IMG/VR virus record: IMGVR_UViG_3300023179_000026
Location: 72,879-136,878 of that record
DNA length: 64,000 nt
Source of the DNA: a virus
Reading direction: 5' to 3' (one strand)
The notes beneath the pieces are model-generated. The model was not told the origin of the DNA and ran no database searches. It saw nothing but the letters and a program-made list of their open reading frames with translations. Of this stretch, positions 1-64,000 are shown in pieces. A program made the translations under genes and the position numbers. The stretch's first letter is position 1, and each line of letters starts with the position of its first letter.

Positions 1-99
1 ACCATCATAATTTAAGATAGCCTTATTAAAATCAGCTAACACACCATCCATATCAACAAAAACAAATGGTTTGGCTTTCGACACTTCAAAAATTTTCAT
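1..99 (-). CDS. HAD-family 5'(3')-nucleotidase-like phosphatase, N-terminal part (runs off left edge)
   Basis: Not in ORF track; ATG at 99 overlaps the TGA of 96..524 (ATGA); reads MKIFEVSKAKPFVFVDMDGVLADFNK, HAD motif I DxDGVLxDF. Confidence 0.75.
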   Translation of the reverse strand, partial: MKIFEVSKAKPFVFVDMDGVLADFNKAILNYDG

Positions 100-524
100 A
101 CTCTACAATTCCCTATAACCTTAGTAATGGTTGTAAATTCACGTGCAATACGCTCATAAAACATTTCAGGTGGGCGTTCACTATAAGTACGATAACCCAA
201 AGCAAGTTGACCCATGTCAACATAATAGGATAAACTAGGCCAACGTTTTCTGTTGAGTTTTAACCCATCAATAAGTATACATTCTTCTGCTAGTCTTGTC
301 AATGTAGCTTTTTTTGTTTCACCCTCAGTGTTCATTGCTTCCATCAATTTTATGGCAATAGGTTCGTTATTCAGGTGTGGATTTTCCATATGTCTTGCAA
401 ACATGTGTACAGTAAATGCTTCAATTTCAGGGTCTAAATTGACACATGCAGCAGCTTCGGCGGCAATAATTACCTCGTAGCTATGCTTGACATAGGTCAT
501 CCAATGTTGCATATTAGTGTTCAA
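96..524 (-). CDS. hypothetical protein resembling an uncharacterised proteobacterial family
   Basis: 142-aa ORF coupled to both neighbours; SYYVDMGQLAL...MFYERIAREF pattern recalled from bacterial hypotheticals. Confidence 0.6.
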   Translation of the reverse strand: MNTNMQHWMTYVKHSYEVIIAAEAAACVNLDPEIEAFTVHMFARHMENPHLNNEPIAIKLMEAMNTEGETKKATLTRLAEECILIDGLKLNRKRWPSLSYYVDMGQLALGYRTYSERPPEMFYERIAREFTTITKVIGNCRV

Positions 525-1758
525 GTAATAGAGTTATAATTACATCATTACGGTTAGCACTATCGTCTCCATCGCCTGGGACTACGACAACGTTCCAATA
601 TGGTTCGCCATTTGATTTTACACCATCTTTAAATGTCATCATTTGGTCATAGGTAATAATCGTATTTGGTTTAATACCATATTTTTGGGCAGCACGTTGT
701 TTAAATGTTTCCCACGCTTCAGCATTTTTCCAACGCAATTTATTATTTGCATCACGTCCCATCAAATCAGTAAACATTTCACGGTCTACAATTTCACTAC
801 GTTTGACTTCTTGACCTGTTTGTTTTTTATAGATATCAACTTTTTTGTATTCACCTGATTTAGCACCCATAGAAAAATTAATTCTAAAGTTTTGTGGACG
901 CTGACTTGTTGCTACATCGCCCATTTTAGTATAGGCGTAAAATTGTACGTCAGGAAACTTTCTAGCTACATCATACGCCAAGTTTAAATATTCAGGGCTA
1001 AAGAAATCACCCGCATCATGCCAACGAATAATAACTTGTGTACCCTTTTTCTGATATTTTTCCCTAGCTGATTCAATTTCACTTTCAAGCATTGCTTTCC
1101 ATCCATCAGGATCATTTAATAGAAAGTTTAATGACCTAGATCCTGCTTCAGATGGTGGGGCATATTGCACATAACCACCCTTCATAGCATAACATACTTG
1201 GACGCATTTACCTGCGCCTGGGCAGGTGTTGACTACTACAAATTTTTGTCTATCTTCATCAACTGCTAAACCAACTAATGCAGGTAATCCAATGTTAAAA
1301 AATATACTACTGCTTCCATCACTATGTTGCATTTTTTCATTTTGTTTAAGCAACTTTTTAGGACGTTGCATAACAGATGCCATTAGTTTTGGTAAATCAT
1401 ATAATTGATTATTTCCATCAACAATAGGTACTGTTCCACTATGAATATATGGGCGTATTAACTTATCTTGTTTAAATCGTTTGTAAATGTCATATTCCTC
1501 ACCTGACATTTTTCCAAGCTGTTTTTTACTTGGTCTACGATACTTTTTTTGTAATTCAGGACTAAGTTTTCTACGAAGATAATCAGTTAACTCATCTTCA
1601 GGATAATCACGGCGTGGCGCACCCAAAAATTTTTCAGCTTCATCTAATTCTTGTTCATCTTGAACAAACTGTTGCAACGACATAATTTGTACTCCTGAGG
1701 CTGCGCCTGGGAAATCAGACTTTAATGCATTTTCAAATAATAGTTCGCTAATTTTCAT
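514..1758 (-). CDS. GP88-like protein (Cys cluster, radical-SAM-like) with N-terminal extension
   Basis: TCPGAGKCVQVCYA (Cx5Cx3C), RWHDAGDF and FYAYTK motifs of the phage GP88 family. Confidence 0.7.
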   Translation of the reverse strand: MKISELLFENALKSDFPGAASGVQIMSLQQFVQDEQELDEAEKFLGAPRRDYPEDELTDYLRRKLSPELQKKYRRPSKKQLGKMSGEEYDIYKRFKQDKLIRPYIHSGTVPIVDGNNQLYDLPKLMASVMQRPKKLLKQNEKMQHSDGSSSIFFNIGLPALVGLAVDEDRQKFVVVNTCPGAGKCVQVCYAMKGGYVQYAPPSEAGSRSLNFLLNDPDGWKAMLESEIESAREKYQKKGTQVIIRWHDAGDFFSPEYLNLAYDVARKFPDVQFYAYTKMGDVATSQRPQNFRINFSMGAKSGEYKKVDIYKKQTGQEVKRSEIVDREMFTDLMGRDANNKLRWKNAEAWETFKQRAAQKYGIKPNTIITYDQMMTFKDGVKSNGEPYWNVVVVPGDGDDSANRNDVIITLLLEH

Positions 1759-2548: not shown

Positions 2549-4852
2549 TTAGGATGAGCCAAAAAACTTATTCATCAAAGCTTTTTGTTTTTTAGGTTTT
2601 GCTCCAAGTACAGGACTAATATTAGCTACCTTGTCAGTGCCACTTAAATATTTTGGGTTACGTTTGTCCTCTTTAGTATAACGTGGGTCTTTAGGATCAT
2701 ACTCAGTACCAAACGCACTCTTAACTTGTGACGAATTGAATATGATATAAGACATATCTATATAGTCAGCTTGTTTTTGCAAATACTGATGCGCTTCTTG
2801 CTCAGCTTCTTCAGGTGTATCACCTTCACCAATAGGTAAAGTAGGCATAACATTATCAGGTAAATATGCTACGTACTTTGATCCTTCTTTTTTAATCGTA
2901 AAATTAATGCGCTCATCAGGTCGCAATGTTCGCTTACCTTCATTAGTATTACGATATTGTATACCATCATATCCCGCATCAAACAATGAACGTGCTAATT
3001 CAGCATAGATTGTTGCTTTACAATCATCCCAATCCATGTCACGATCTCTACGAATTGCATCAAGTTCGTTATATTCTTTTTGGTTAATAATCTTTTTCTT
3101 AAATAAAAAATTCATAACTTGACGTAAATGTTCTTCATCAGGACCAAATATGTCAGGCATCGTAAATGGGTTAGTAATCTTTAAATAAACAGGAATTACA
3201 CGTGCTCCACTATATTTGGCAAACTCATTAGCTGCTTCACGATTGCCAAAATGTATACCAAAATCACGATATAAATTTTTAAACGTTGAAAAATCATTAG
3301 ATGTACCATGATATACAATCATAGGAGCACCATTGGTATCAACTACTTTACTATTGCCAAACCACGCTCTTAAATTTTCCTCACGACCTTCTTCTAGTTC
3401 TTTTAGAAAACTCATTGACTCTTTGTTAATATTAGGATTAGTTGGGTTAAATTCACCTGTATTAAATACTGATTTAATTTGTGTATTATCAAATGCAACA
3501 ATCTCTCTAATATCACCTATCTTAGCCCTACCCTGAAATATTATGCCATCATATCCTTCACTTTGTAATTGTTTCTTATATTGTATTGCTTTACTCATAG
3601 GCCATTTGTTCTCAATTTCATCAATCAATGATAACGGTTCAACTTTTGGCTTTTGTATGGACAAATATACAGGCATGATAACAGCATCGTCTTTGTCAAA
3701 ACCACGTCCTGCATAACGTTCAGCATAAGATGGGTCATCCGTAAAAAAATGCCCTAGATGTTTTTGTGCCGTGTTAAATTTGGGATAGTTTTTTAATTTT
3801 CTGCCTTTCTGAAACACACTGAAGTCTCTATCAGTACCATGATAAACTCGTAATGGCTTACCACTTGCATCTACAATTTTACTATTTTTAAACCAATTTT
3901 TAAAATTTTCTTCAGATTTTATATCAATATTTGTTGCACTTTTAAGTTTAAGTTTAGGTTTTTTCTCTGCAGGTCTAGGTGTGTCAAAATCCACATCAAT
4001 AACGTCAACTTTTTCTTCTTTAGTAATATCAGGTTCATCCCTACCAAATGTACCAACATTATATATAGACTTGATTTGATATTGTTCAAATGGGCGATAA
4101 GTTAAAATAATGGGTGTACCCTCAGCACCAAGTTCTAACTCTTTTCCATCACGTGGTTCATATTTCTGTGCACCTGCTTCAAAAACATCTTTTAAAATGA
4201 CCCCATCATATCCCATACCTTGTAGGTAACTTACAATATCTTCACTATCTGCAATAGTATATGTATCTATAACCGTATTGTCTAGTGCATCCTCAATCGA
4301 ACTAATATCGTCTGCTTCACCCCATGTGTCAATTTGATCGGAAAGGTCACGAAATCCTTTTATTCTAAAACCATCATCATCATAAGCATTAATTTCAAAT
4401 CTTGCGCCTGTTTTGTATATGATTTCATCTAAATCATATATCATATAGGACACATCTCTCCAACCTAGTTTTTTACGTCCACCATCAGGTACATTTAGAT
4501 CGCTAGGCACCGTATTAATAAAATCTATTAATGATATTGTTTCGTTATAACGGGTAAGGTCTAATGGTTTAACAATACGTAAATATGCTGCGATTACAGT
4601 AGAACCACTACCATATTGTCTTGTATCTAAATGTCTAGCATATACACTAGCTGCTGCAGGGTCATTCGTAAATGATGGTACTGCACGACCTTGTGTTAAT
4701 TTAAATTCTGTGGCAGTAGGTCGCTTACGTGTACCACGATATACAACAAGTGGGTTGCCATTACTATCAACCACTTTACTATTACCAAACCAACTACGAA
4801 ATGCTTTTGTCTCTCTAGCCTTTTGGTACTCTAATAACTGCCCAATTTTCAT
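2549..4852 (-). CDS. protein with three tandem ART-PolyVal-like ADP-ribosyltransferase-fold domains
   Basis: Three copies of WFxNSK(V/I)VDxxGxP(L/M)xVY(R/H)GT ... (AA/PV)YL.I..P ... GYDG(I/V) ... Q(I/V)KS. Confidence 0.75.
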   Translation of the reverse strand: MKIGQLLEYQKARETKAFRSWFGNSKVVDSNGNPLVVYRGTRKRPTATEFKLTQGRAVPSFTNDPAAASVYARHLDTRQYGSGSTVIAAYLRIVKPLDLTRYNETISLIDFINTVPSDLNVPDGGRKKLGWRDVSYMIYDLDEIIYKTGARFEINAYDDDGFRIKGFRDLSDQIDTWGEADDISSIEDALDNTVIDTYTIADSEDIVSYLQGMGYDGVILKDVFEAGAQKYEPRDGKELELGAEGTPIILTYRPFEQYQIKSIYNVGTFGRDEPDITKEEKVDVIDVDFDTPRPAEKKPKLKLKSATNIDIKSEENFKNWFKNSKIVDASGKPLRVYHGTDRDFSVFQKGRKLKNYPKFNTAQKHLGHFFTDDPSYAERYAGRGFDKDDAVIMPVYLSIQKPKVEPLSLIDEIENKWPMSKAIQYKKQLQSEGYDGIIFQGRAKIGDIREIVAFDNTQIKSVFNTGEFNPTNPNINKESMSFLKELEEGREENLRAWFGNSKVVDTNGAPMIVYHGTSNDFSTFKNLYRDFGIHFGNREAANEFAKYSGARVIPVYLKITNPFTMPDIFGPDEEHLRQVMNFLFKKKIINQKEYNELDAIRRDRDMDWDDCKATIYAELARSLFDAGYDGIQYRNTNEGKRTLRPDERINFTIKKEGSKYVAYLPDNVMPTLPIGEGDTPEEAEQEAHQYLQKQADYIDMSYIIFNSSQVKSAFGTEYDPKDPRYTKEDKRNPKYLSGTDKVANISPVLGAKPKKQKALMNKFFGSS

Positions 4853-10603: not shown

Positions 10604-11287
10604 TTATGCTGCTACAGGAGGTTTTTGTATTGCATATTCCTTTTTAATATGTTGGTAAAAGTGCATGTAATAAATTGACTGATATGCTTCATTATCATAA
10701 TCAAAAAACAAATTACCATCATTCCATCTTCCTGCTTTACCTCTAGTATCCCAATGTAAGAAAAAATTTAGATTTGCTGATGGGAAAAAAAGATTTTGGT
10801 GTTTGAGAAAAAAGTCACGTAATTCAATTATCTCATCCGAACTGTATACCTTACTTTTAAAATACACCCTAAATTGATGTTTTGGGTTTTTATGATATAT
10901 AACTTCTTTTGGTCTAGAGTATGTATGTAATACTTCTTGAACCGTTGTAGGTTGATTTAAAATCTTAGCAAGTTCTTCTACAATATCATATCTTGTTGAA
11001 TATACAGTAATAGAATTACGATGTGTTAAGATTTTAAAGTTTCCAATATTTTCACCTTTCCACACAAGAACTTTTCTAAGTTCTATTAAATTATTAGCAT
11101 ATTTGATACGGATATTAGAACGTTCTAATTCACGATCAACATGACTGATATCGTACCATCGATGTAATCCAACTTGTTCTAAATTAAATTCAACCTTATA
11201 TTTGTACTTGTCATACCAAAGCCAATTTTGCTTAGTATTTTGAACAAGCGTTGTATAACTAAACCCTGATAATACCATCTGTTCCAA
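10604..11287 (-). CDS. hypothetical protein
   Basis: Aromatic-rich ORF overlapping clpA 3' end; ATG 11278 may be the real start. Confidence 0.55.
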   Translation of the reverse strand: MEQMVLSGFSYTTLVQNTKQNWLWYDKYKYKVEFNLEQVGLHRWYDISHVDRELERSNIRIKYANNLIELRKVLVWKGENIGNFKILTHRNSITVYSTRYDIVEELAKILNQPTTVQEVLHTYSRPKEVIYHKNPKHQFRVYFKSKVYSSDEIIELRDFFLKHQNLFFPSANLNFFLHWDTRGKAGRWNDGNLFFDYDNEAYQSIYYMHFYQHIKKEYAIQKPPVAA

Positions 11288-13535
11288 TTATGTCATACTT
11301 TTCTATTCTATTTTCTACATTAAACTCAATTTCTGAACCATTATAATGTACCTGAATGATTGCATCTTTTACACGTTCAAACAGTATCTTCTTACTAATT
11401 GGTACTCTAATTAATTCATCAATTTTTCTAGCTAATGGTCTAGCACCCATCTTGTCATCATAACCAACCTTAGCAATATGTTCAACTGCTTGCTCACTCA
11501 AATTCAGTGTAATCTTATGCTGATTAAACAATTGTGTTTTAAGCTCATTAACAAACTTGATAACAATTTTCTTAATTGCTAGTGTGTCTAGTTTCTTAAA
11601 TTTGCAAATTAAGTCAATACGATTACGTAACTCAGGCTTGAAGAATTCTTTCATTGCTTTATCATCTTCACCTGTTTTTACATTTGACCCAAAACCAATG
11701 TTATTACGCTCACTATCACGTGCTCCTAAATTACTTGTCATGATAATAATTGTATTTTTAGCATCAACTGTTTTACCATTAGTGCTAGATATTCTTCCTT
11801 CATCTAACAATTGTAAAAATAAGTTATAAACATCAGGGTGTGCTTTTTCAACCTCATCAAACAGTAAGATAGAATATGGGTTTTTACTTAAATCATTGAT
11901 AATCTTTCCACCACCTAAATTACCTTCACCATACCCAACATACCCAGGAGGTGCCCCAATCAACGCAGCTACACTGTGCTTTTCTTGATATTCACTCATA
12001 TCATAACGTAATAGTGGCATGTTAAGATGTTCGCTTAATAGTCTTGCTGTTTCTGTTTTACCACTTCCTGTTGGTCCTAAAAACAAGAAGCTTGCCATAG
12101 GTTTCTTTTCATTAGAAATACCTGCAAAACTAACGTAAATACGTTCTAAAATTTGTTCAATTGTATTGTCTTGTCCATACAATTTTTCTTTAATATTTGC
12201 ATCTAGGTTAATCATTCGTTCTGAAGAATCATTGGTTAGTTTATCAGCAGATACATTACACATTCTAGTAACTTGTTCTTTAATATTATCTTCACCAATA
12301 ATAGCACCAACGTTGTTTAATGTACGTTGTTTAGCACAAGCAGCATCAAGTAAATCAATAGATTTATCAGGATTTTTACGATCATGAATATACCTTGCAC
12401 TCATGGTTACTGACTCTTTAATAGCTTTGTCAGTAATAACTACTTGGTGAAACTTTTGTAAACGATCACTCAAGCCTGTTAAAATCTTGATAGTTGTTTC
12501 CGTAGTAGGTTCATCAATGCTAACACGATAAAAACGGCGCATCAGAGCACGATCTTTTTCAAATGATTCGTAATATTCTTCCCATGTTGTACTAGCAATT
12601 ACTTTTAAGTTACCTTTAGTAATAGCAGGTTTAAGCATGTTAGCAAAATCAACCGTAGTACCACTGCTATTACCACTACCTCGCATGGTATGTGCTTCAT
12701 CAATAAACAGTATAGCCTTTGGTTTGCTAGCAAGTGCTTCCAATACTTGTTTAACTTTTTCTTCAAAATCACCACGATATTTACTACCTGCTAATAGTGA
12801 ACCAATTTCAAGTGAATATACTTGATGATCATATAAAAATAATGGTACTTGCTTGTCTAATATTTTTTGTGCTAATCCTTCAGCTAGGATAGTTTTTCCA
12901 ACACCTGGGTCGCCAACAAGTAGTACATTAGACTTGAATCGTTTAGCTAATACATTAACAATGTCATCAACTTCTTTCTCTCGTCCAATAAGTGGTTCAA
13001 GCTTGTTACGTTCAGCAAGGTCACTAAGATTAGTTGTATATTCTTCTAATACTTCATTAGCTTGTTGTTCAGTCATTTTTCCGTTTTTACCACCACGATG
13101 CGCTTTATTCCAATAAGCAAGGAATTCTGCCCTGCTTACACCCCATTTTAATAAGAAATAGTGAGCATGACTATTGGTTTCTTGTAAAATTGACACGTAA
13201 ATATCAATCAATTCAATTTGTCTGCGTCCTTGAAATAATACTTGTGTTACTGCTCGATTAAAAACACGGTCTAAACTATGTGTTTTTTTAGGTGAAATAG
13301 GTGAACCATCTTCATTAGGTTCAACTTTAATGTTTGTCATAGAATCTAAGTAAGTATCAACTTCTTGAATAAGGTTTTCAGTATCCACACCGAATTCATC
13401 TAAGTGAGTACGAAATGAATCGTAAGTAATTAAACTAAGTAAAGCATGCTCTAAGGTAACATAAGCATGATTTTTACTTTTGGCTATTTCAATAGCATGT
13501 TCGATTAATTTTTCGATTTCAGGGTTATTCTGCAT
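11259..13535 (-). CDS. clpA: ATP-dependent Clp protease ATP-binding subunit ClpA
   Basis: Clp N-domain, two AAA+ modules (GDPGVGKT/IDEAH; GPTGSGKT/FDEVEK), pore loops KYRG and GYVG, NIGFG ClpP-docking loop, no long M-domain; ATG 13535 after AAGGAA. Confidence 0.9.
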   Translation of the reverse strand: MQNNPEIEKLIEHAIEIAKSKNHAYVTLEHALLSLITYDSFRTHLDEFGVDTENLIQEVDTYLDSMTNIKVEPNEDGSPISPKKTHSLDRVFNRAVTQVLFQGRRQIELIDIYVSILQETNSHAHYFLLKWGVSRAEFLAYWNKAHRGGKNGKMTEQQANEVLEEYTTNLSDLAERNKLEPLIGREKEVDDIVNVLAKRFKSNVLLVGDPGVGKTILAEGLAQKILDKQVPLFLYDHQVYSLEIGSLLAGSKYRGDFEEKVKQVLEALASKPKAILFIDEAHTMRGSGNSSGTTVDFANMLKPAITKGNLKVIASTTWEEYYESFEKDRALMRRFYRVSIDEPTTETTIKILTGLSDRLQKFHQVVITDKAIKESVTMSARYIHDRKNPDKSIDLLDAACAKQRTLNNVGAIIGEDNIKEQVTRMCNVSADKLTNDSSERMINLDANIKEKLYGQDNTIEQILERIYVSFAGISNEKKPMASFLFLGPTGSGKTETARLLSEHLNMPLLRYDMSEYQEKHSVAALIGAPPGYVGYGEGNLGGGKIINDLSKNPYSILLFDEVEKAHPDVYNLFLQLLDEGRISSTNGKTVDAKNTIIIMTSNLGARDSERNNIGFGSNVKTGEDDKAMKEFFKPELRNRIDLICKFKKLDTLAIKKIVIKFVNELKTQLFNQHKITLNLSEQAVEHIAKVGYDDKMGARPLARKIDELIRVPISKKILFERVKDAIIQVHYNGSEIEFNVENRIEKYDIIGTDGIIRV

Positions 13536-15281: not shown

Positions 15282-15824
15282 TTAGATTATTCCTGCTTGA
15301 CGTTGCATTGCTATAATATCAGGATCTTCTGTTTTTTGTGTGCTTGCACTGATTCCCGCAATTGAACGCCACTCATTTAATTCTTCATCATGCTCTGCTG
15401 CATATTCTTTTGGACTAAGAGCTAGTTGTGATGTAATAAATTCTTCCGATGCATCACCTTTTTCATGGTTAATTTTTACTTTCCATTGATCCATTTTTAG
15501 TCCTGTTAATGTTTCTAAATCAGATATAAGTTCTACAATATGTTTGGGTGCTACCTTATTTCTTTCAATTTCAACAAATACTAAGAATTTTCCTTTAGCA
15601 ACTTCGCCTGGGCTGCGGTCAGAATCTAATACCCAATTATATCCACGTTCAAACCATTCTACTAAATCACTAGCTGCATACTCATCCTTTACTGTAAAAC
15701 TCAATGTAATAACATTTTTGTCTTTACCTACAGAAGATTTGTATACATCAACCCCAACTAATGGTAAAATTAAATTTTCCATGTCGAGGTATCCCAAACT
15801 TTCATTGATTATTTCTTTTTTCAT
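15282..15824 (-). CDS. hypothetical acidic protein
   Basis: 180-aa ORF, ATGA-coupled to upstream ORF; begins MKKEIINE. Confidence 0.6.
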   Translation of the reverse strand: MKKEIINESLGYLDMENLILPLVGVDVYKSSVGKDKNVITLSFTVKDEYAASDLVEWFERGYNWVLDSDRSPGEVAKGKFLVFVEIERNKVAPKHIVELISDLETLTGLKMDQWKVKINHEKGDASEEFITSQLALSPKEYAAEHDEELNEWRSIAGISASTQKTEDPDIIAMQRQAGII

Positions 15825-47152: not shown

Positions 47153-47860
47153 TTATAATTCTCCTAAAATTTTATAAAGTTTTCTTTTTGTTATGTTTAG
47201 TGTTTCTAAACATTCTTTACGGGTTCGGTATGTAACACCGTCAACTGTTATTGGTTTAGCATTTGCGTTTTTACCACCTTTTCTACTATCACCAATTGTT
47301 TCCCTCATTTTTTGTAATGACTCACTATTATGAGTTTTTCCATAAAAAGGATTTGATTGACCAGGAAAACCAAATTTTGATTTACGTTCTTCTGGGGTAA
47401 ACTCATTCCATTTTTTTTGTACACTATGAGAAATTCTTTTTTTCACATCATTCGTTGGATTATACGGATTTAATGTTTTACTCTTACTAATTGCTTCTTT
47501 ATGCGTTTCAGTTTTTGCTTTACCAAGCAACGCTTTTGAGGTATTTTTACTAATTTTTTGATTTACTAAATTACCAAGATTTCCACCCTGACCACCGAGA
47601 GCTATATTGTAAGACTGCTTATTATGAATTAAGTTTTCATTTACTAGCTCTCTTTCTTTTATTTCCATATCTATTTGATTTTCAAAAATAAAGAGTATTT
47701 CACGAGTAAAATTTTCAATACCATATTTCTTGATAGCTTTAGTTAAACTTAATCCACTTCCAAAATAACCATCATCAATCACATCAGTAGAATGCTTACC
47801 AATGTAAAATTTGCCATTCAACTTGTTAGTTGTTTTGTATATGACGTGACATTTTTTCAT
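47153..47860 (-). mobile_element. free-standing GIY-YIG (Seg-like) homing endonuclease gene with NUMOD3-like repeats
   Basis: VIYKTTNKLNGKFYIGKH...YFGSG, E..L, YNIA.GG.GG; NPFYGKTH.E repeats; ATG 47860 5 nt after CTAAATA (47866-47872). Confidence 0.85.
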
Positions 47861-47902
47861 AAAAGTATTTAGTGTAAAAGTCTTAAAAATGACCTTTAAC
47901 AC

Positions 47903-47916: not shown

Positions 47917-47936
47917 TTGCGCATATAAATAGCAAA

Positions 47937-51009: not shown

Positions 51010-51612
51010 CTATCTTATTATTCCAAGAGAAGGTGAACCTAGTGTCTTTCTACCGTCAAACATAAATCGTGGATAAAAAATATTATTCTTGTCAATATAG
51101 TGTAAAAAGAACTGAACGTGCCTTACCCCTTGAAAATTGTCTCTCCAATGTTTTAAGTATGTACCTTGATATATTATTGCATCACCTTCGTCTAAAACAA
51201 CAGGAATAACAGTTTTATTTTCAAGTTCAAGATATAAAGGCCATTCAACAAAATCTTTCTGGATACAAATAGAAACAGAATATTCACATGATTCTCTATC
51301 TACATGTGGTATTAATTTACAATTATTATAATAAATTCTTTGATAACTATAAGATTCTACAAGATCTTTTTTGACAATTTTAGATACTTTGTTTTTAAAC
51401 TTAATTAACAAAGATTCAGTAACGAATCCTCCATACCAACTGAATGATTCAAAACAATCAAGATCATTATATGGATATGGGTTATCTAATGTTGGTGGTT
51501 TTACTCGATAACAATTAGTTTCATGAAGCAAGCAAATATTTTTGATAATTTCAATTGTTTGTTTATTTAGAAACTTTTTTGTAACTTGGTATTTGTATTT
51601 TTTAAATGACAT
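51010..51612 (-). CDS. 2OG-Fe(II) oxygenase-like protein
   Basis: RIY....L..HVDR.SCEYS (HxD), GDA.IY.G....HWR, Q.FLHY. Confidence 0.8.
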   Translation of the reverse strand: MSFKKYKYQVTKKFLNKQTIEIIKNICLLHETNCYRVKPPTLDNPYPYNDLDCFESFSWYGGFVTESLLIKFKNKVSKIVKKDLVESYSYQRIYYNNCKLIPHVDRESCEYSVSICIQKDFVEWPLYLELENKTVIPVVLDEGDAIIYQGTYLKHWRDNFQGVRHVQFFLHYIDKNNIFYPRFMFDGRKTLGSPSLGIIR

Positions 51613-54700: not shown

Positions 54701-56323
54701 GTGGCACAGTTTTTTTATGATAAACAAGTAAGAAGATTTTTAATACAGTTTGCAAAAATCTTATCAAATTGGTATGTGGAAGATGGATATGATCCTAATG
54801 GAAATATTATCCTTAAACGTGTTCCTGTTATGTATGGTGATCAAAGTAGAAACGTTGCGAACATCATTAGTAACAATAGCCCAAGCAATTTACCAACAGT
54901 TCCACAAATTACGTATTATGTTAATGGACTAACATACGAACAAAATCGTACACAAGACCCATACTTTGTAGATAATTTATCAATACGTCAACGTTCTTAC
55001 AATAATGAAACACAAGAATTTGAAACTACACAAGGTAATGCGTTCAGTGTAAAAAGGTTGATGCCTGTACCTTATCGTTTAAGTGTAACCGTGGACTTTT
55101 GGACTAGTAATTATAACCAAAAAATGCAATTATTTGAACAACTTGGTGTATTATTTAACCCATCATTAGAAATACAGAGCACTGATAATTTCATTGATTG
55201 GACTTCGTTAAGTGTAGTATACCAAGAAAGCTTAAATTGGACAAGTAGAAGTATTCCAATTGGAACATCTAATCCAATTGATATAATGACTTGGAAATTT
55301 TATATGCCAATATGGATTTCTAGCCCAATTAAGGTACAAAAACTTGGCGTAATTTATAAAGTTATTAACAGTATATACAAAGGCACTGCATTAAGCGATA
55401 TGCAAAATGATGAACTATTATTAGGTACAAGACAAAAAGTAAGTCCTTATGGGTATCAAGTACTTCTATTAGGTAATACTTTACAAATATTACCCGCTAA
55501 CCAACCTGAATATTTACCTAATGATAATTTAGAATTACCATCTAGCCCAAATACCTCATTAACGTGGCATCAAGTTTTAAACGCATACGGAAACGTCCGT
55601 CCAGGTATCTCTATGATTACTCTTGAAAATCCATACATGGATACTGAAATAATGGGTACGATAACATACGATCCCTTAGATGATAGATTACTTTCGTATA
55701 ATATTGATGTAGATACTATTCCCGCAAATACTTTAGAACCTATTGACAGAGTGGTGGATCCACTAAGTCAAGGTCCAAACGTAGGACTACCTGTTGCAAC
55801 ATTAGGCACACGATATTTGTTAACAAATGATATTGGTGACCCAAATACTTTACAATTGCTTGTTAGTGAATCAGGTTCTTTAGCAGCAGGTGCAACTGTA
55901 ATTCAGGTAAGTGGTTTACACTTAGCTGCAAGTTCAACATGGGTAGGTAGTGTATTAACAGGAACAAATTCAAGTGGACAACGAATGTTTTCTGATGATA
56001 CTGAAATTGTTTCAATTAATTTAATAGCAAATACGATAACGATTAATAATCCAACTATTGCAATTATTCAAAACAGTGATATAATAAACACAACCACTAG
56101 AAACACTGCAAGTGCATGGGGTGATATTGTAGCGTATCAAAATGATATTATAGAATATAATGGTACAAAGTGGGAAGTTGTATTTAACAGTAGTGCATCA
56201 ACCACACCACAATGGGTTGTAAACTTGCGCACTTCTGTTCAATACAGATTTGGTCAAGAAAGTGGTTGGACTAAATCATTTGAAGGATTTTATGATCAAG
56301 GTTCATGGAACATCGTAATATAA
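54701..56323 (+). CDS. gp15: tail sheath stabiliser / tail terminator with C-terminal extension
   Basis: FFYD.Q.RRFL.QF, VPV.YG, PVPY.L......W.SN..Q..Q..EQ....FNP; GTG start. Confidence 0.8.
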   Translation: MAQFFYDKQVRRFLIQFAKILSNWYVEDGYDPNGNIILKRVPVMYGDQSRNVANIISNNSPSNLPTVPQITYYVNGLTYEQNRTQDPYFVDNLSIRQRSYNNETQEFETTQGNAFSVKRLMPVPYRLSVTVDFWTSNYNQKMQLFEQLGVLFNPSLEIQSTDNFIDWTSLSVVYQESLNWTSRSIPIGTSNPIDIMTWKFYMPIWISSPIKVQKLGVIYKVINSIYKGTALSDMQNDELLLGTRQKVSPYGYQVLLLGNTLQILPANQPEYLPNDNLELPSSPNTSLTWHQVLNAYGNVRPGISMITLENPYMDTEIMGTITYDPLDDRLLSYNIDVDTIPANTLEPIDRVVDPLSQGPNVGLPVATLGTRYLLTNDIGDPNTLQLLVSESGSLAAGATVIQVSGLHLAASSTWVGSVLTGTNSSGQRMFSDDTEIVSINLIANTITINNPTIAIIQNSDIINTTTRNTASAWGDIVAYQNDIIEYNGTKWEVVFNSSASTTPQWVVNLRTSVQYRFGQESGWTKSFEGFYDQGSWNIVI

Positions 56324-56745
56324 ATCGTATTAATAATAGCGTAGGTATATTATTTTGCGCACTAAAAACTAATAGGCATTTATTTCTACTACGTAACGAT
56401 AAAAAGATTAATACGTGGGGATTGCCTGGGGGTAAGGTGGAGCGTGGTGAAAGTTTAAAAACAGCGTTAGAGCGTGAATGCAATGAGGAAATTCAATTTT
56501 GGGTACCAAACATTAAGTTATTTCCTATTGAACAATTCACAAGCGAAGATAAACGATTTGTTTATCATACCTTTTATTCATTTATTGATAATGAATTTAT
56601 ACCAAAATTAAATCATGAGCATATTGGATATTGTTGGGTAGATATGAATTTATACCCTAAGCCATTACATCGTGGTTTATTCAATACCTTGAATTACAAA
56701 ATTATACAACAAAAAATATCATTAATACATGATGCTGTAAAATGA
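56305..56745 (+). CDS. NUDIX hydrolase
   Basis: GGKVERGESLKTALERECNEEI Nudix box. Confidence 0.9.
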   Translation: MEHRNINRINNSVGILFCALKTNRHLFLLRNDKKINTWGLPGGKVERGESLKTALERECNEEIQFWVPNIKLFPIEQFTSEDKRFVYHTFYSFIDNEFIPKLNHEHIGYCWVDMNLYPKPLHRGLFNTLNYKIIQQKISLIHDAVK

Positions 56746-57391: not shown

Positions 57392-57880
57392 TTAAAATGT
57401 TTTAAAATCACTCCCAGATATTGGCATTTGAAAATTTGGATCTGTAATCTCACCAAATACATCACGTGCATTTGGCATATTAACCCATTCTAGTGTATTT
57501 TCATCCCAAAAATACAAACCATCATTAGGGTATGCAACGGGGCATACAAATCCACATCGGTCTTCATCAAATGTCCAACTTTTTACGTTTGGAAAAACCT
57601 CAGAGAATCTTGATTTTACGAAATTTTGTTTATCAAATTTTTCTTCTGTTGTAAACTCTCTTACTTCCCAAACATCTTTTACTATATTCCCAACCCATTT
57701 ATAAGATAATCCAATTATTTCTTGATGCCAACTTACTTCAGGCATTGGCACTCTCTCAAACCATGCAAATTCAGGTGGCAGCTCATCAATATTTACGTTG
57801 GGGAACGCTGAAATAAAATTGGATAATATAATTGGATGTTCAAATGGATTACCATCTTTAATTTGAATTATTAAGTTCAT
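57392..57880 (-). CDS. hypothetical tail-fibre-associated protein
   Basis: CPVAYP.DG.Y.WDE....W motif; follows giant fibre gene; TATAAATA at 57898-57905. Confidence 0.55.
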   Translation of the reverse strand: MNLIIQIKDGNPFEHPIILSNFISAFPNVNIDELPPEFAWFERVPMPEVSWHQEIIGLSYKWVGNIVKDVWEVREFTTEEKFDKQNFVKSRFSEVFPNVKSWTFDEDRCGFVCPVAYPNDGLYFWDENTLEWVNMPNARDVFGEITDPNFQMPISGSDFKTF

Positions 57881-57906: not shown

Positions 57907-60900
57907 TTACGCATTAACGCCTTTTATAACTGCGAATTGAAACACAGGTTGTTCAGTTGTCGTACCTGAAAAGGTAGCAAAAGTTATTTGGAAACTACCT
58001 GCAGCTACGTTTGTTACTTGTAAATTATAACGGTCAGTGCCTGATTTTTGATTTAAAATTATTACGTCAGTTGCAGCAACTGTGCTATTTGTTACAGTAA
58101 ATGTATTTGCTGTAGTTGAACCTGCTGCGGAAACTAGCGTAATTGCGCCTGTTTGTTTATTTAAAGTAACACCTGTAGCTCTTGAAGTTGCTTGTGTAAC
58201 TGTACCACCTGCTCCTGTAAAATAACCAAGATTTGCTGTTGTATATATGTTTGCCGATCCCAATACATTACCCGCAAACAAACTATTTCCTGATCCTACA
58301 TAAAATGCATATGAATTAGTTGCAGTTACGTTAGTGCTTACAGTAGGGGCACTTTGTATGTACAATGTGGCTAAATTAGTCGTTGTAATTGCATTTGAGG
58401 CTGTTACTGTTGGAGTAGCTATTGCATGGATTGCTGCATTTGCAATTGTTCCTGCTGCTGACACATTATCTGTATAAGTGCTAGCAAAAGATCGTAAACC
58501 TAAATTACTTGTGATAGTTGCAGCATTAATATTTCCACTTGCTGCACCACTTATTGAAAAATTATTAGCAAACATTGTACCATTACTTGCGTTAGCAATA
58601 AACAAGTTTGCGCTAATCGAAGCAGCACCCGAAATACTACCACCCGATCCACCTCCTGTTACTAAGCCTGTACTACTAAAACTTGCTACGTTTGCACTTC
58701 CTCCGACAGATATTGTTACATTTCCCGAAGCTGAAGGTATAGCAACATTACTTGTTCCATTTGCAAAAGCACCCTGAAATGAATTTGCAGATATAACATT
58801 TGCGCCTGTAATATTTCCACCTGTTCCCACACCTGTTATTAAATTACCAGCAGTCACATTTGCATTAAAATAGCTATTCCCTGCGCCAACGTATATGGCG
58901 TAAGGATTAGTAATTGTCATATTAGTACCTGCAGTAGGCGCATTTTGAATAAAAAATGTTGCTGCATTTGTTGCAGTAATAGTAGCATTAGCTGCAGCCA
59001 ATGTTGGAGTACCAATTGCATGAATAGCTGCATTTCCAACTGTTGAACTTGCCGCTAATGAATTATCCGTATAAGTTGAAGCAAACGCACGTATACCAAG
59101 GTTACCCGTTACAGTAGATACGTTTGCATTACCTGTTGCGTTACCATTTGCAGTAATATTATTTGCAATAATCGTAGAATTAGCTCCTGCAATTGAAAAA
59201 TTACCTGCTATGTTAACACCTGTGCTTGTGACAACAAAAACGTTAGCTGTACCACCTGAACTTATGGTTACATTACCATTAGCAGCAGGAATACTAATAT
59301 TACTGTTTCCATTACTAATAGCTCCAACCGAAGCCACCGCCCAACTTAAACCACCACTTCCATTTGTCGATAAAAATTGTCCACTGCTTCCACCTGTTAT
59401 AATGACATTTCCTACCGCTCCAAGATTTGAAACACCTGTAACTTGCAATGTTCCTGCAACATTAACACCTGTTGAAGTGACTGTAAACTGAGAAGTAGTA
59501 TTACCTGCAACAAAGAAAGAATGATTTCCACCTGACGCTATAGTATGATTACTTGTGCCACTTGCCATCAAACCACTATTAATTGTCGTAATATTACCTG
59601 TAGTGAATATTCCTGTAGTGGCACCTATGTTGCCCACATTGGCATTACCTGTGCCAGTATTCAATGTACCTGCAATATTGACACCTGTTCCTGTAACAAT
59701 TAATATATTTGCATTACCTACTGCACTAATATTGACATTGCCATTAGCTGCAGGTATATTTACGTTACTATTTCCATTACTAATACTAGTTGAACTTACT
59801 GAAATCCAACTTAAGTTTCCACTACCATTAGTGCTTAGTACCTGTCCATTACTACCACCTGTAATAATAACGTTACCAACTGCTCCAAGATTTGAAACAC
59901 CTGTTGCTATTAGCCCTGTTGTACCAATATTACCAACATTGGCATTACCTGTTGCGTTTAATGTACCTGCAACATTAACACCTGTTCCTGTAACCACTAA
60001 TACATTTGCAGTACCTACTGCACTAATAGTGACATTACCGTTCGCTGCAGGTATATTTACGTTACTATTACCATTTGCTAGTCTGCCTAAAATATTACCC
60101 GCAAATAATGCATTACCTGATGCCACATGTAATGCTAATGGGTTGGTAATGGTCATATTTGTACCCGCAGTTGGTGCTCCCGCAATATAGAAAGTAGCAG
60201 CCGTAGTAGAAGTAACAGTGGCATTTGCTGCTGCTAATGTTGGTATGCCTAATCCATGCACTGCTGCATTAGCAATAGTTGAACTTGCTGCAACCGAGTT
60301 GTCTGTGTAGGTAGATGCAATTGCTCTTAAACCTAAATTACCCGTCAAGGTGCTTGCATTAGCATTACCTGTTGCTGCACCGCTTGCAGTAATATTATTA
60401 CCAAAAATTACGGCATTCGCTGCACTTGTTATAACATTACCCAAAAATGTTGTAGCATAAAGTGCACCATTTGATGTATTAGCAACAAAGTTAGCATTTC
60501 CCGCTTCTGCAACATTGCCTGTAATAGCACTTGACAATGTTAAATAATAATTACCCGAAGAAGCAGTGGTAATTACATTGAAGTCAGAAACATTTGCATA
60601 CGCTACATTTAGGTTGCTTACACGTGTTATACTAGTTACTGTTATTGGAGCGGTTCCTGTTGCTACATTACTAATTAAGGTTGGTGCAGTCACGTTTGCA
60701 GTAGCAAGAACTTGAGCAGCACCAATGTTACCAACATTGGCATTACCTGTTGCATTTAATGTACCTGCAACATTTACTCCTGTACCTGTAACAATTAATA
60801 TATTTGCATTACCTACTGCACTAATATTAACATTACCATTGGCAGCAGGTATGTTGACATTACTATTTCCATTACTAATACTAGTTGAACTTACTGAAAT

Positions 60901-63900
60901 CCAACTTAAGTTTCCACTACCATTAGTGGAAAGAACTTGACCATTACTACCACCTGTAATGATAACATTACCTACTGCCCCTAAATTTGAAACACCTGAT
61001 ACATTTAAACCTATAGCTGCATTTACTGTATTAGCACTAATTACATTAGCACCCGTAATATTTCCACCTGTTACAATATTACCTGCAAATAAACTATTAC
61101 CCGATGCCACGTGCAACGCATATGGGTTAGTAATACTCATATTCGTACCCGCAGTTGGTGCTCCTTGAATAAAGAATGTTGCTGCATTTGAAGCAGTAAC
61201 AGTAGCATTTGCTGCTGCTAGTGTTGGTGTACCTAACCCATGTATTGCTGCATTAGCAATAGTTGAACTAGCTGCCACTGAATTATCAGTATAGGTAGAA
61301 GCAATGGCACGTATACCCAAGTTTCCTGTTACAGTTGATGCATTAGCATTTCCTGTTGCTGCTCCATTAGCAGTAAAATTATCAGAAGATATTGTTGTAT
61401 TAGCTCCTGTTGCATCAATATTACCTGCAACATTTACCCCTGTTCCTGTAACTACTAATATATTAGCATTACCTGCTGCACTAATATTAACATTTCCATT
61501 AGCAGCAGGTATTGATACGTTACTATTTCCATTACTAATACTACTTGTGCTTACTGTTGTCCAACTTAAGTTTCCACTTCCATTTGTAGATAATACTTGT
61601 CCATTACTGCCACCTGTGATGATAACATTACCCACTGCTCCAAGATTTGATACACCTGTTGAATTAATATTAATAAAATTTGCATTACCTGTAGCATTTA
61701 ATGTTCCTGCAATATTGATACCTGTACCCGTTACAACTAAAATATTTGAATTACCCGCAACACCAAATAATACATTACCACTTGATGTCAAAATAGAAAC
61801 ATTAGTAGTACCATTTGCTAAATTACCTATAAATGTATTAGCTATAACAAAATTTGCACCTGTAATATTTCCACCTGTTCCCACACCTGTTATTAGATTA
61901 CCAGCAGTCACATTACCTGCAAATAACGCATTACCTGATCCAACATGCAATGCATATGGATTAGTAATTGTCATATTAGAACCTGCAGTTGGCGGTCCTT
62001 GAATAAAAAATGTTGCTGCATTAGTAGCAGTTACTGTTAAATTAGCAGAATCAAGTGTTGGTGTACCAAACCCATGTATTGCTGCATTAGCAATAGTTGA
62101 ACTAGCTGCCACTGAATTATCAGTATAGGTAGAAGAAAGAGCACGTATACCTAAATTTCCTGTTATGGTTGACGCATTAGCATTGCCTGTTGCTGCTCCA
62201 TTAGCAGTAAAATTATCAGAAGATATTGTTATATTTGCTCCTGTTACATCAATATTACCTGCAACATTTAGCCCTGTTCCTGTAACAACTAATACGTTTG
62301 CATTACCCGCTACGCTTAAATTAATATTACCGTTTGCTGCAGGTATTGATACGTTACTATTTCCATTACTAATATTAGACTCTTGACCAACTGTTGTCCA
62401 ACTTAAATTACCACTACCGTTTGTTGTTAATACTTGACCATTACTACCACCTGTGATGATGACATTTCCATTTGCTCCAAGATTTGATACACCTGATACT
62501 TGTAATGTACCTGCAACGTTTACACCTGTGCTAGTAACCACAACAACATTTGCTGTGCCACCTGCACTAATATTAACATTACCATTAGCAGCAGGTATAT
62601 TAACATTACTATTACCATTAGCATGTGGGCCTAAAACATTTCCAAACGTGCCATTACCACTTACCGTTAATGACGCTAGTGTTCCAACAGATGTTATATT
62701 AGGTTGTGCTGCAGTTGTTAATGTACCTGTTAAGAAATTAGCACTAACAACATTTCCACCTGCAACGTTAGCTGCTGCTAAATTACCTGTAAAATTTCCT
62801 GTACCTGCAACATTAACACCTGTGCTAGTAACCACAACAACATTTGCTGTGCCACCTGCACTAATATTAACATTACCGTTTGCAGCAGGTATATTAACAT
62901 TACTATTACCATTAGCATGTGGTCCTAAAATATTGCCAAACGTTCCATTTCCTGTAACATTCAATGTTCCTGCATTAACACCTGTACCCGTAACTACTAA
63001 TATATTAGCATTACCTGCTGCACTAATATTAACATTTCCATTAGCAGCAGGTATTGATACGTTACTATTTCCATTACTAATACTACTTGTGCTTACTGTT
63101 GTCCAACTTAAATTACCACTTCCGTTGGTGGATAAAAATTGACCATTGCTACCACCTGTAATAATGACATTACCAACTGCCCCAAGATTTGATACACCTA
63201 ATACATTTAACGCAGTAGCTGCATTTATTGTATTACCGCTTATTCTATTTGCACCTGTAATATTTCCACCTGCTCCACCACCTACTACCAAATTTGCTGC
63301 AGTTAGATTACCTGAGACCGTACCGCCCCCTGTAACGTCAATACCTGTACCTGTTACCACTAATATATTGGCATTACCTGCTGAACTTATATTAACATTT
63401 CCATTAGCAGCAGGTATTGATAAGTTACTGTTTCCGTTAGAAATAGTACTTGCGGAAATACCTGTTAATTGACTACCATTACCGATGAAGAAGTTAGCTG
63501 TAATATTACCATCTGCGTTGCGTTGTACAATACTATTTGCTGTAGCTGTTTGACTAGGGGCATTGCCTTGTAATGCATTTGCGTTAAGATTCGCAACTAC
63601 CGTAGTAGAAGTAACTACCAATGGGGCTGTACCTGTAGAAACATTAGAAATTAATTGTGGTGCAGTTACATTAGCACTAGCTAATACTTGTGAAACACCT
63701 AAATTACCTGTATTGGCATTACCTGTTACATTTAATGTACCCGAAACATTTACTCCTGTTCCTGTAACAACTAATACATTAGCATTACCTACAGCAGAAA
63801 TATTAACATTTCCATTAGCAGCAGGTATGTTTACGTTACTGTTACCATTAGAAATAGTGCTTGTTGTAGTAGTAATACCTGTTAATTGACTACCATTACC

Positions 63901-64000
63901 GATGAAGAAGTTAGCTGTAATATTACCATCTGCGTTGCGTTGTACAATACTATTTGCTGTAGCTGTTTGACTAGGGGCATTGCCTTGTAATGCATTTGCG
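57907..64000 (-). CDS. giant repetitive tail fibre / adhesin-like protein, 5' truncated by window edge
   Basis: Frame is open from 57907 to the edge (track start 63621 is an internal TTG/Leu); more than 2000 aa of N/G/T/A/V/I/S repeats. Confidence 0.8.
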   Translation of the reverse strand, partial: ANALQGNAPSQTATANSIVQRNADGNITANFFIGNGSQLTGITTTTSTISNGNSNVNIPAANGNVNISAVGNANVLVVTGTGVNVSGTLNVTGNANTGNLGVSQVLASANVTAPQLISNVSTGTAPLVVTSTTVVANLNANALQGNAPSQTATANSIVQRNADGNITANFFIGNGSQLTGISASTISNGNSNLSIPAANGNVNISSAGNANILVVTGTGIDVTGGGTVSGNLTAANLVVGGGAGGNITGANRISGNTINAATALNVLGVSNLGAVGNVIITGGSNGQFLSTNGSGNLSWTTVSTSSISNGNSNVSIPAANGNVNISAAGNANILVVTGTGVNAGTLNVTGNGTFGNILGPHANGNSNVNIPAANGNVNISAGGTANVVVVTSTGVNVAGTGNFTGNLAAANVAGGNVVSANFLTGTLTTAAQPNITSVGTLASLTVSGNGTFGNVLGPHANGNSNVNIPAANGNVNISAGGTANVVVVTSTGVNVAGTLQVSGVSNLGANGNVIITGGSNGQVLTTNGSGNLSWTTVGQESNISNGNSNVSIPAANGNINLSVAGNANVLVVTGTGLNVAGNIDVTGANITISSDNFTANGAATGNANASTITGNLGIRALSSTYTDNSVAASSTIANAAIHGFGTPTLDSANLTVTATNAATFFIQGPPTAGSNMTITNPYALHVGSGNALFAGNVTAGNLITGVGTGGNITGANFVIANTFIGNLANGTTNVSILTSSGNVLFGVAGNSNILVVTGTGINIAGTLNATGNANFININSTGVSNLGAVGNVIITGGSNGQVLSTNGSGNLSWTTVSTSSISNGNSNVSIPAANGNVNISAAGNANILVVTGTGVNVAGNIDATGANTTISSDNFTANGAATGNANASTVTGNLGIRAIASTYTDNSVAASSTIANAAIHGLGTPTLAAANATVTASNAATFFIQGAPTAGTNMSITNPYALHVASGNSLFAGNIVTGGNITGANVISANTVNAAIGLNVSGVSNLGAVGNVIITGGSNGQVLSTNGSGNLSWISVSSTSISNGNSNVNIPAANGNVNISAVGNANILIVTGTGVNVAGTLNATGNANVGNIGAAQVLATANVTAPTLISNVATGTAPITVTSITRVSNLNVAYANVSDFNVITTASSGNYYLTLSSAITGNVAEAGNANFVANTSNGALYATTFLGNVITSAANAVIFGNNITASGAATGNANASTLTGNLGLRAIASTYTDNSVAASSTIANAAVHGLGIPTLAAANATVTSTTAATFYIAGAPTAGTNMTITNPLALHVASGNALFAGNILGRLANGNSNVNIPAANGNVTISAVGTANVLVVTGTGVNVAGTLNATGNANVGNIGTTGLIATGVSNLGAVGNVIITGGSNGQVLSTNGSGNLSWISVSSTSISNGNSNVNIPAANGNVNISAVGNANILIVTGTGVNIAGTLNTGTGNANVGNIGATTGIFTTGNITTINSGLMASGTSNHTIASGGNHSFFVAGNTTSQFTVTSTGVNVAGTLQVTGVSNLGAVGNVIITGGSSGQFLSTNGSGGLSWAVASVGAISNGNSNISIPAANGNVTISSGGTANVFVVTSTGVNIAGNFSIAGANSTIIANNITANGNATGNANVSTVTGNLGIRAFASTYTDNSLAASSTVGNAAIHAIGTPTLAAANATITATNAATFFIQNAPTAGTNMTITNPYAIYVGAGNSYFNANVTAGNLITGVGTGGNITGANVISANSFQGAFANGTSNVAIPSASGNVTISVGGSANVASFSSTGLVTGGGSGGSISGAASISANLFIANASNGTMFANNFSISGAASGNINAATITSNLGLRSFASTYTDNVSAAGTIANAAIHAIATPTVTASNAITTTNLATLYIQSAPTVSTNVTATNSYAFYVGSGNSLFAGNVLGSANIYTTANLGYFTGAGGTVTQATSRATGVTLNKQTGAITLVSAAGSTTANTFTVTNSTVAATDVIILNQKSGTDRYNLQVTNVAAGSFQITFATFSGTTTEQPVFQFAVIKGVNA
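61448..63111. repeat. identical 122-nt direct repeat (61448-61569 and 62990-63111)
   Basis: Base-by-base match, offset 1542 nt (in frame). Confidence 0.8.
63457..64000. repeat. identical direct repeat of at least 127 nt (63457-63583 and 63874-64000)
   Basis: Base-by-base match to the window edge, offset 417 nt (in frame). Confidence 0.85.

Follow-up and report, generated by a model that had tools for sequence, protein, structure and literature searches.

Here we report that a stretch of DNA from an uncultured jumbo myophage related to Rak2, PA5oct and Atu_ph07 has been purged of the asymmetric four-letter word CCAG (CTGG on the opposite strand), that this purge is genuine and very strong, and that those copies of the word which protein coding obliges the phage to keep are surrounded by a halo of C whose strand follows the orientation of the site. 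The stretch analyzed, hereafter the window, comprises 64,000 nucleotides (bases 72,879-136,878) of the 136,878-bp IMG/VR contig IMGVR_UViG_3300023179_000026 (contig G000), which has a completeness of 39% according to the CheckV estimate and a G+C content of 34%; coordinates are those of the window unless marked as contig coordinates. At least eight words make up the purged set, which is not a constant one: CCAG, the most strongly affected, and CGCG, CCGG, GGCC, GCAGGC, GACATC, CAGCTG and GCACGS. The purge is a trait of one clade within the Rak2/PA5oct-like jumbo phage group. A preliminary description of the window, made from its letters alone, had proposed strong selection or mutational pressure against a single consensus, CCRG; our analyses partly support that interpretation, which was right in kind and wrong on CCRG.

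Results

Expected word numbers were obtained from a maximal-order Markov model and from a synonymous codon shuffle within genes (200 shuffles), which keeps the proteins and the codon usage of each gene. According to the Markov model the window holds 25 CCAG against 166 expected (z = -13.6) and 17 CTGG against 142 expected (z = -12.8), CCGG (17 expected) and CGCG (20 expected) are both absent, and CCTG (386 against 203) and CAGG (203 against 118) are found in excess. The codon shuffle yielded very similar results on the coding strands, with 19 CCAG observed against 127.5 ± 7.3, 23 CTGG against 168 ± 10, no CCGG against 30, no CGCG against 25 and nine GGCC against 30, the observed numbers of CCAG, CTGG, CCGG and CGCG lying far under those of each one of the 200 shuffles. 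The preliminary description had noticed by eye a window-wide loss of CCAG/CTGG and a complete lack of CCGG beside common ACGG, TCGG and GCGG (56, 26 and 37 copies, respectively) and abundant CCTG, and the counts confirm each of these impressions.

The purge, which on both strands and in coding as well as non-coding counts runs from position 1 to 64,000 for CCAG/CTGG, CCGG, CGCG and partly GGCC, also holds for the full contig, where CCAG and CTGG together number 87 against 622 expected under the Markov model and where the codon shuffle gives CCAG 47 against 239, CTGG 38 against 294, CCGG one against 60, CGCG none against 64 and GGCC 24 against 68. Non-coding DNA (8.9 kb) contains two CCAG/CTGG and 23 CCTG/CAGG. 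Because the coding strand of the contig has lost CCAG and CTGG to the same extent (47 and 38 copies left, respectively), the pressure must act on duplex DNA and not on mRNA, and the avoidance of mRNA interferase sites, which concerns the sense strand only, does not describe these data. Depletion against a null that preserves codons and amino acids, affecting both orientations and non-coding DNA, is in turn what restriction avoidance is expected to leave. The purge is just as strong where CCAG precedes A, C or T, and the target is, as first suspected, an asymmetric 4-bp word and not CCWGG or CCGG alone. A modification-dependent CCDG target of the LpnPI/MspJI type, which for LpnPI had been remarked earlier to hit CCTG too, does not fit either, as CCTG/CAGG is over-represented 1.68-fold.

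What is left of the word sits almost entirely where the proteins leave no choice. A proline-glycine junction written CCA GGN makes CCAG, CCT GGN makes CTGG, and CCC or CCG GGN make CCGG, while any other frame of these words can be silently rewritten, so that Pro-Gly is the sole forced dipeptide. Among the 67 CCWGG of the contig, 66 are in-frame CCW GGN, in agreement with the first reading of the survivors, and the remaining reading frames of CCWGG are empty; in the window alone, 36 of the 42 CCAG/CTGG sites are CCWGG and six are others. The residual forced sites of the contig comprise 41 CCA-GG and 25 CCT-GG. Pro-Gly is written 66 times as CCWGG and once as CCSGG, and CCGG must therefore be costlier to the phage than CCAG. 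Codon choice throughout the contig is bent in the same way: proline before a G-initial codon other than glycine is CCT 335 times, CCC 31 times, CCA four times and never CCG, alanine before GG is GCA 190 times, GCG 27 and GCT four times, threonine before GG is ACA 239 times, ACG 21 and ACT twice, and serine before glycine takes an A-ending over a T-ending codon by 82 to 1, which bears out the preference for ACA, GCA and CCT noticed in the preliminary description. The pressure reaches the amino acid level: the ratio of observed Pro-Gly dipeptides to those expected from composition is 0.66 in this contig and 0.61 in its purged relatives, and 22 non-purged loci give 1.06. In aligned ortholog pairs Pro-Gly is present in the non-purged relative alone 156 times and in G000 alone 27 times, against 73 and 37 for the control dipeptide Gly-Pro; a count of unique ortholog sites (seven Pro-Gly retained, eight lost, one gained) goes in the right direction with numbers too small to stand alone.

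That the survivors look like CCWGG, the target of Dcm, EcoRII and class 2 DISARM, might suggest that these copies persist because Dcm-type methylation masks them. We consider this scarcely conceivable. A masked pentamer would survive in the other two frames too, and the confinement of 66 of the 67 copies to the single frame that cannot be rewritten contradicts the idea; moreover CCAGH is purged as well, Pro-Gly itself is depleted, a search of the two purged contigs for a C5-methylase was negative, and the flanks are asymmetric, with C at -1 and +1 on the CCAG strand, which is unexpected for a palindromic reader. Very short patch repair predicts an excess of CCAG and not its loss (PMC4687349), and the footprint of Vsr, an excess of CCAG/CCWGG with a deficit of CTAG, is not what we see (observed/expected ratios of 0.14 for CCAG and 0.94 for CTAG).

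The forced sites carry a second signature in their surroundings. Glycine is written GGC after CCA in 27 of 41 cases (10% in genome usage) and GGG after CCT in 13 of 25 (7%), and neither pattern appears in non-purged relatives. When all sites are oriented along the CCAGG strand, C occupies position -1 in 51-57% and position +1 in 49-55% of them, against 10% and 24%, respectively, at the same flanks in non-purged relatives, and G at +1 is nearly absent (2 of 67 sites). Third positions near CCA GGN are C in 40-60% of cases and those near CCT GGN are G in 30-58%, over a baseline of 10%, with no such effect in the relatives. Taken together on the CCAG strand, neighbouring third positions are C in 36-38% of cases, against 7-13% in eleven controls, among them the forced Trp-Pro GGCC sites (n = 25), GCA GGN, ACA GGN, CCT Gxx, CCA before a codon that does not begin with G, Gly-Pro, any GGC, any GGG and any C-ending codon. 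Residual GGCC sites that overlap Pro-Gly sites (n = 13), the single loosely defined control, gave a third-position C fraction (C3) of 0.28. Non-forced CCAGH sites have little halo (flank C of 0.22 against 0.29 at forced sites).

Across 143 unique forced sites the fraction of C on the CCAG strand stays at 0.28 or more between -13 and +14 (position 0 being the first C), followed on the 3' side by a tail of 0.19, 0.26 and 0.17 at +17, +20 and +23, and preceded on the 5' side by 0.16, 0.11 and 0.08 at -16, -19 and -22, so that, by arithmetic on the profile values, the 3' tail is about 3.6 standard errors higher than its 5' counterpart. The halo, about 28-37 bp of synonymous changes, consists almost wholly of third positions; at its four-fold sites A and T both yield to C, and G is not raised. 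Sites of the window alone give a halo score of 0.35 against 0.10 ± 0.018, the maximum in 2000 random draws being 0.16. All purged subclades have the halo, and it is missing from relatives at 66% identity and from L076, a more distant relative described below.

The halo follows the orientation of the DNA, not transcription, and orthologous sites show that it is attached to the site. Forced sites common to the contig and its purged relatives number 46; the proline codon is kept in 40 of them and swapped between CCA and CCT in six, and in five of these six the halo, measured as C3/G3 excess, has swapped strand with the site. In the GP88-family gene, for example, the site at 575..579 (- strand) reads GTT GTC GTA GTC CCA GGC GAT GGA GAC here and GTG GTG GTG GCG CCT GGG GAT GGG in the relative L187, the two proteins being 92% identical. 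In the gp15-like gene the site at 55601..55605 (+ strand) reads AAC GTC CGT CCA GGT ATC TCT here and ACG GTA AGG CCT GGG ATA TCA in L009, and the orthologs in both L006 and L009 have CCT GGG among G-ending neighbouring codons. The sixth swap is very recent (99% identity) and concerns a site without a clear halo. Since the halo changes with the orientation of the A:T pair at the centre of the site, the unit that is read must be the asymmetric CCAG and not the pseudo-palindrome CCWGG. The coupling between site and halo is actively maintained.

Other forced sites of the window illustrate the same pattern. On the - strand, the site at 1217..1221 lies in AAC ACC TGC CCA GGC GCA GGT with a C-halo, and its ortholog in L187 has CCT GGG and has lost the upstream C's; that at 1706..1710 reads TCT GAT TTC CCA GGC GCA GCC TCA and that at 15607..15611 reads GAC CGC AGC CCA GGC GAA GTT GCT. 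At 11944..11948 (- strand), in the ClpB-like gene, the coding sequence GGG GCA CCT CCT GGG TAT GTT GGG bears a G-halo, which is a C-halo on the CCAG strand, and a G-halo on the coding strand is also found at 56425..56429 (+ strand; TGG GGA TTG CCT GGG GGT AAG GTG).

Several candidate explanations of the halo were tried and rejected. Chi-like protection of break ends predicts opposite strand biases on the two sides, and the bias is the same on both; a Type I half-site with a variable partner predicts a one-sided, spaced signal, and the halo is continuous and two-sided; GC-biased repair or duplex stability alone predicts equal rises of G and C, and just C rises on the CCAG strand; patches of codon usage do not account for it either, as the neighbours of ordinary C-ending codons have a C3 of 0.108. 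Mom-like protection, for which a NUMOD3-Mom fusion encoded in the window came into question, was dropped because it fails to explain the 5' half of the halo. The context of the Mu Mom enzyme, SASNY, would fit CCAGGC; the fusion gene was not found in the relatives searched, which include one purged contig that possibly does not cover the region. The fusion gene, at 41886-43499 (+ strand), encodes a 537-residue protein with an N-terminal NUMOD3 DNA-binding motif and a C-terminal Mom-family domain (E = 1.6e-8 for each), on the strand opposite to the adjoining structural genes and with just marginal partial matches in the records of five relatives; this protein may be a mobile enzyme that modifies DNA bases in a sequence-directed manner.

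A mutational origin deserves separate consideration, given that the preliminary description had left the choice between selection and mutational pressure. Under such a scenario, a context-dependent process would destroy CCAG wherever the protein allows it and strand-specific repair synthesis, recurring at persistent sites, would write C into the flanks. A halo that flips with its site, even between proteins 92% identical, is what a site-anchored, strand-oriented process should produce, and its near confinement to third positions is compatible with this. The words found in excess are, however, the synonymous transversion neighbours of CCAG (CCTG/CAGG 1.68, GCAG/CTGC 1.47 and CCAC/GTGG 1.39), and its transition products are not (CTAG 0.94, TCAG 1.04 and CCAA 1.04), so that selection fits the data better than mutation. 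In addition, no single mutation type suffices to make both A and T yield to C in the halo, Pro-Gly is depleted as a dipeptide, and the drop to about 3% of expectation at removable positions needs an extreme rate bias. We therefore view a mutational origin as quite improbable.

Sites surviving outside Pro-Gly are few. In the window they are exactly the six listed by eye in the preliminary description: 47392..47395 (CCA GAA), 51259..51262 (ATC CAG AAA, silently removable), 57414..57417 (TCT GGG), 58847..58850 (GCT GGT), 59654..59657 (ACT GGC) and 61901..61904 (GCT GGT). The first lies in a SegE-like GIY-YIG/NUMOD3 homing-endonuclease gene (47153-47965, - strand) that is likely recent mobile DNA; the fourth belongs to an NVTAGNLITG repeat of a fibre-like gene of 1904 amino acids, which also holds the fifth, and the sixth lies in the paralogous copy of that repeat. 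The mobile location of one exception and the paralogy of two others had been correctly recognized. The contig as a whole has 20 CCAG/CTGG outside CCWGG, among them one each in the genes for tRNA-Pro(UGG) and tRNA-Trp(CCA) and two in a gene for an HNH endonuclease. About half of these survivors are explained by functional RNA or by mobile DNA of recent arrival, the others being ordinary removable sites. Two local clusters may be mentioned. Contig positions 61030-61609 (1030-1609 of L082) hold three small open reading frames without a Pfam match and, within 600 bp, four non-forced CCAG/CTGG and a non-forced GGCC, and look like recently acquired DNA in which the purge is still incomplete. Outside the window, at contig positions 20576-20592 (in L080), the sole two non-coding CCAG/CTGG form an inverted repeat, CCAG-N9-CTGG, in the gap before an open reading frame that overlaps tRNA-Trp and tRNA-Cys genes; this repeat is possibly a structured RNA or a terminator.

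The distribution of the purge was followed in related loci, 78 with gp15 and 30 with PolB. Loss of CCAG, CCGG and CGCG was found in every locus with at least 77% identity in gp15 or at least 79% in PolB (for example, observed/expected numbers of 26/145, 0/12 and 0/9 in L010, and of 17/82, 0/5 and 0/11 in L166), whereas loci at 68% identity or less have ratios mostly near 1, with a few mildly low (about 0.65-0.8) and some in excess. The purge thus extends beyond the contig to its nearer relatives and stops short of the more distant ones. In a quick gp15 tree all purged rows fall on one side of a branch with a Shimodaira-Hasegawa-like approximate likelihood ratio test (SH-aLRT) support of 94. 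As a side observation, CCAG/CTGG is moderately over-represented, the opposite of the purge, in five non-purged PolB relatives (L172, L183, L191, L193 and L194), with numbers such as 341 where 256 are expected.

The set of words is not constant over these loci. In L076, at 42% identity, CCGG (1/9) and CGCG (1/12) are lost and CCAG is normal (143/134), so CCRG is not one target. A single system with that degenerate target would account for CCAG/CTGG and CCGG together, and the two purges do co-occur throughout the clade; CGCG co-varies with CCGG equally well, though, at least eight words are purged, and the 66 to 1 ratio of CCWGG to CCSGG at Pro-Gly speaks for unequal costs, all of which makes such a system very improbable and disposes of the consensus first proposed. 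GGCC is purged solely in the subclade holding G000 (27/71 and 10/36, against 35/46 in the sister subclade); 17 of its 27 survivors in the contig are forced Trp-Pro TGG CCN, mostly CCT, without flank halo, and examples of GGCC in the window lie at 238-241, 3600-3603, 5931-5934 and 16203-16206. The longer words GCAGGC (0/30, 1/19 and 4/23 observed/expected), GACATC (3/30, 1/12 and 4/18), GCACGS (0/27) and CAGCTG are purged clade-wide. GCAGGC, GACATC and GCACGS look like Type IIS/IIG/III-type words, which according to published surveys phages seldom avoid. TGGCCA and AGCGCT are likewise purged across the clade (contig, L010, L187, L066, L166 and others). The A/T-containing palindromes GATC, CATG, GTAC, TGCA, ACGT and AGCT are not purged, nor is GCGC (93/97).

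Regarding the source of the DNA, Pfam matches include a T4 gp15-like tail-sheath stabiliser, a GP88-family protein, a triple ART-PolyVal protein, a ClpB-like ATPase, two tryptophan-halogenase-like proteins, PhoH, a family B DNA polymerase, UvsW, DnaB, both RNR subunits and UvdE. The 73 kb upstream of the window contain 24 tRNA genes, and 166 of the 190 genes of the contig lie on one strand. In tblastn searches the gp15-like protein was nearest to those of Atu_ph07, Phosso, PA5oct and Rak2-like coliphages, with 29-35% identity among the matches listed, and a megablast search with 8 kb of the DNA found no close phage record. The two tryptophan-halogenase-like genes are adjacent (19815-22128, - strand), and the ClpB-like gene (11259-13559, - strand) encodes a full-length double AAA+ ATPase carried by the phage. 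Its best genome matches are contigs of metagenome-assembled genomes (MAGs) assigned to Chitinophagaceae (66%), Haliscomenobacter (61%), Polynucleobacter and Lishizhenia (54%) and Legionellales; among these contigs the shortest are probably mis-binned phage DNA, and as a lead to the host, this link to freshwater Bacteroidota is weak. The DNA methyltransferase families PF00145, PF01555 and PF02086 were not found in the purged contigs G000 (137 kb) and G001 (83 kb), both of which are incomplete.

Discussion

Taking the word counts, the codon choices, the clade distribution and the halo together, we regard it as somewhat more probable than not that the phage has been under restriction-type selection by its hosts, in which one system would read CCAG in an oriented manner and the flanks of unremovable sites would have been altered in compensation. 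According to this proposal the agents would be host DNA-targeting defences of the restriction-modification kind, one of them reading CCAG in one orientation, alongside ordinary systems for CCGG, CGCG, GGCC, CAGCTG and several of the asymmetric 6-mers. Each site would represent a small multiplicative risk to the phage, and every silent removal would therefore be favoured; where the word cannot be removed, the 28-37 bp that the factor contacts or deforms would be rewritten in such a way as to lower its action. Flanking sequence outside a recognition site is known from in-vitro enzymology to change cleavage or methylation rates many-fold. Flank effects are familiar as an enzyme property, but they are not known to have been described as an evolved signature across a genome with strand polarity and covariation, and no report of a compensating flank signature was found in the literature searched.

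A Type III, IIS or IIG-like architecture would be the most natural fit for the CCAG reader. Type III sites are usually 5-6 bp long, and Type IIS/IIG enzymes cut 10-21 nt away from their sites on the 3' side. Like those of EcoP1I and EcoP15I, the site here is short and asymmetric with an adenine on one strand (CCAG has one A and CTGG none). Cleavage by Type III enzymes falls 25-27 nt away on the 3' side (PMC2709564), which is the side of the longer tail of the halo. This longer 3' reach and the single-strand adenine weakly favour such an architecture. The known route by which phages escape Type III enzymes is to hold all sites in one orientation, whereas here both orientations have been purged and the survivors point both ways.

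A number of observations weigh against restriction-type selection. For CCAG just methyltransferases are on record and no cutting enzyme. To our knowledge, no enzyme property predicts protection by C on one strand. Escape is incomplete, about one CCAG remaining per 1.6 kb, and, with 41 CCA-GG and 25 CCT-GG survivors, uniform orientation as a way out has gone unused. A strand-oriented mutational process acting at persistent sites would likewise yield a halo that flips with the site. The purge was not seen at the ClpB-matching MAG loci nor in samples of five MAGs (80 kb from four of them and 25 kb from the fifth). G004, a complete non-purged relative, has three N6/N4 methylase matches, and none was found in G000 or G001. 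Finally, avoidance in surveyed phages mostly concerns palindromic Type II sites, which makes the purge of an asymmetric 4-mer atypical for classical restriction (PMC6286503).

The factor may instead not be a classical restriction enzyme at all, but a strand-oriented DNA surveillance system that docks on CCAG and engages or opens about 30 bp, the halo being the imprint of its footprint; we hold this to be possible but unlikely. Rather doubtful, in our view, is that the words were removed to avoid methylation, phage DNA C-methylated by one host being destroyed by Type IV nucleases in the next. CCAG, CGCG, CCGG and GGCC are all known 5-methylcytosine (m5C) or N4-methylcytosine targets, the purged 4-mers are said to be all G+C-only, and the A/T-containing palindromes are spared. 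CCAG methylation itself is recorded from several bacterial phyla: in Helicobacter pylori A45 it is lost on disruption of hp0944, and Thermacetogenium phaeum shows a CCAG motif (PMC10689673); the motif is listed as already known in Sporosarcina sp. P32a (PMC5930826); and M.Gel16401IV, an m5C enzyme acting on cCag, is encoded by the genome of Geopsychrobacter electrodiphilus together with an m5C enzyme for CGCG, with the cCag motif of Exiguobacterium sp. GIC31 provisionally typed as IIG (PMC4752239, supplement). These enzymes share the four-letter specificity, once together with a CGCG methylase, and the portions of the reports drawn on here document methylation alone, with no cognate nuclease, footprint or link to a freshwater host; none of these organisms is implicated as the host. 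Against methylation avoidance stand the retention of GCGC, a classic m5C target, and the loss of GACATC and GCAGGC, which look like adenine-methylase or Type IIS/III words, and the halo is no better explained by it. We also know of no Type IV enzyme of such range.

The words could also have been removed from the phage because nucleases of its own shred host DNA at CCAG and the other words. The confinement of the purge to one clade and its evenness over early and late regions agree with this idea, as does the failure to find a protective methylase in the two purged contigs, and, with the contig representing 39% of the genome, the nuclease gene could lie elsewhere. A set of at least eight unrelated words that differs by subclade fits shifting host systems better, however, and the nuclease-like genes scanned are of homing-endonuclease types (HNH and SegE-like), themselves carrying CCAG, so that such self-sparing appears improbable.

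To return to restriction-type selection by hosts, the avoidance of restriction sites is textbook knowledge for palindromic Type II sites. The purge resembles the avoidance described for virulent double-stranded DNA phages in that words are lost through synonymous codons, in a lineage-specific manner and several at a time (PMC6286503; for the host side, PMC4687349), and in that the phage appears not to methylate itself. The survey of Rusinov et al. (2018) found avoidance almost exclusively for the palindromic sites of orthodox Type II systems and seldom for Type III or IIG sites (PMC6286503). Here, unlike in the surveyed phages, an asymmetric 4-mer is the word most strongly lost, asymmetric 6-mers are lost as well, the amino acid level is reached, and unavoidable sites carry a flank signature. 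The phenomenon is restriction-type site avoidance in an unusual form, with an asymmetric 4-mer as its target, a reach that extends to the proteins and leftover sites that are armoured.

Conclusion

A purge so nearly complete, and directed at an asymmetric 4-mer, suggests that a common defence specificity is missing from the characterised enzymes of freshwater bacteria. A halo that covaries with the orientation of its site would be a new kind of evidence, resolving to single bases how far the sequence sensitivity of a defence factor extends, with no need for the enzyme itself. If halos proved general at unavoidable sites, they would allow unknown DNA-targeting systems to be discovered and oriented with nothing more than phage genomes from metagenomes, and would provide recoding rules for phage or plasmid DNA that has to pass restriction barriers in laboratory strains. 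And if the surveillance reading were true, phage genomes could reveal the geometry of unknown defence proteins.

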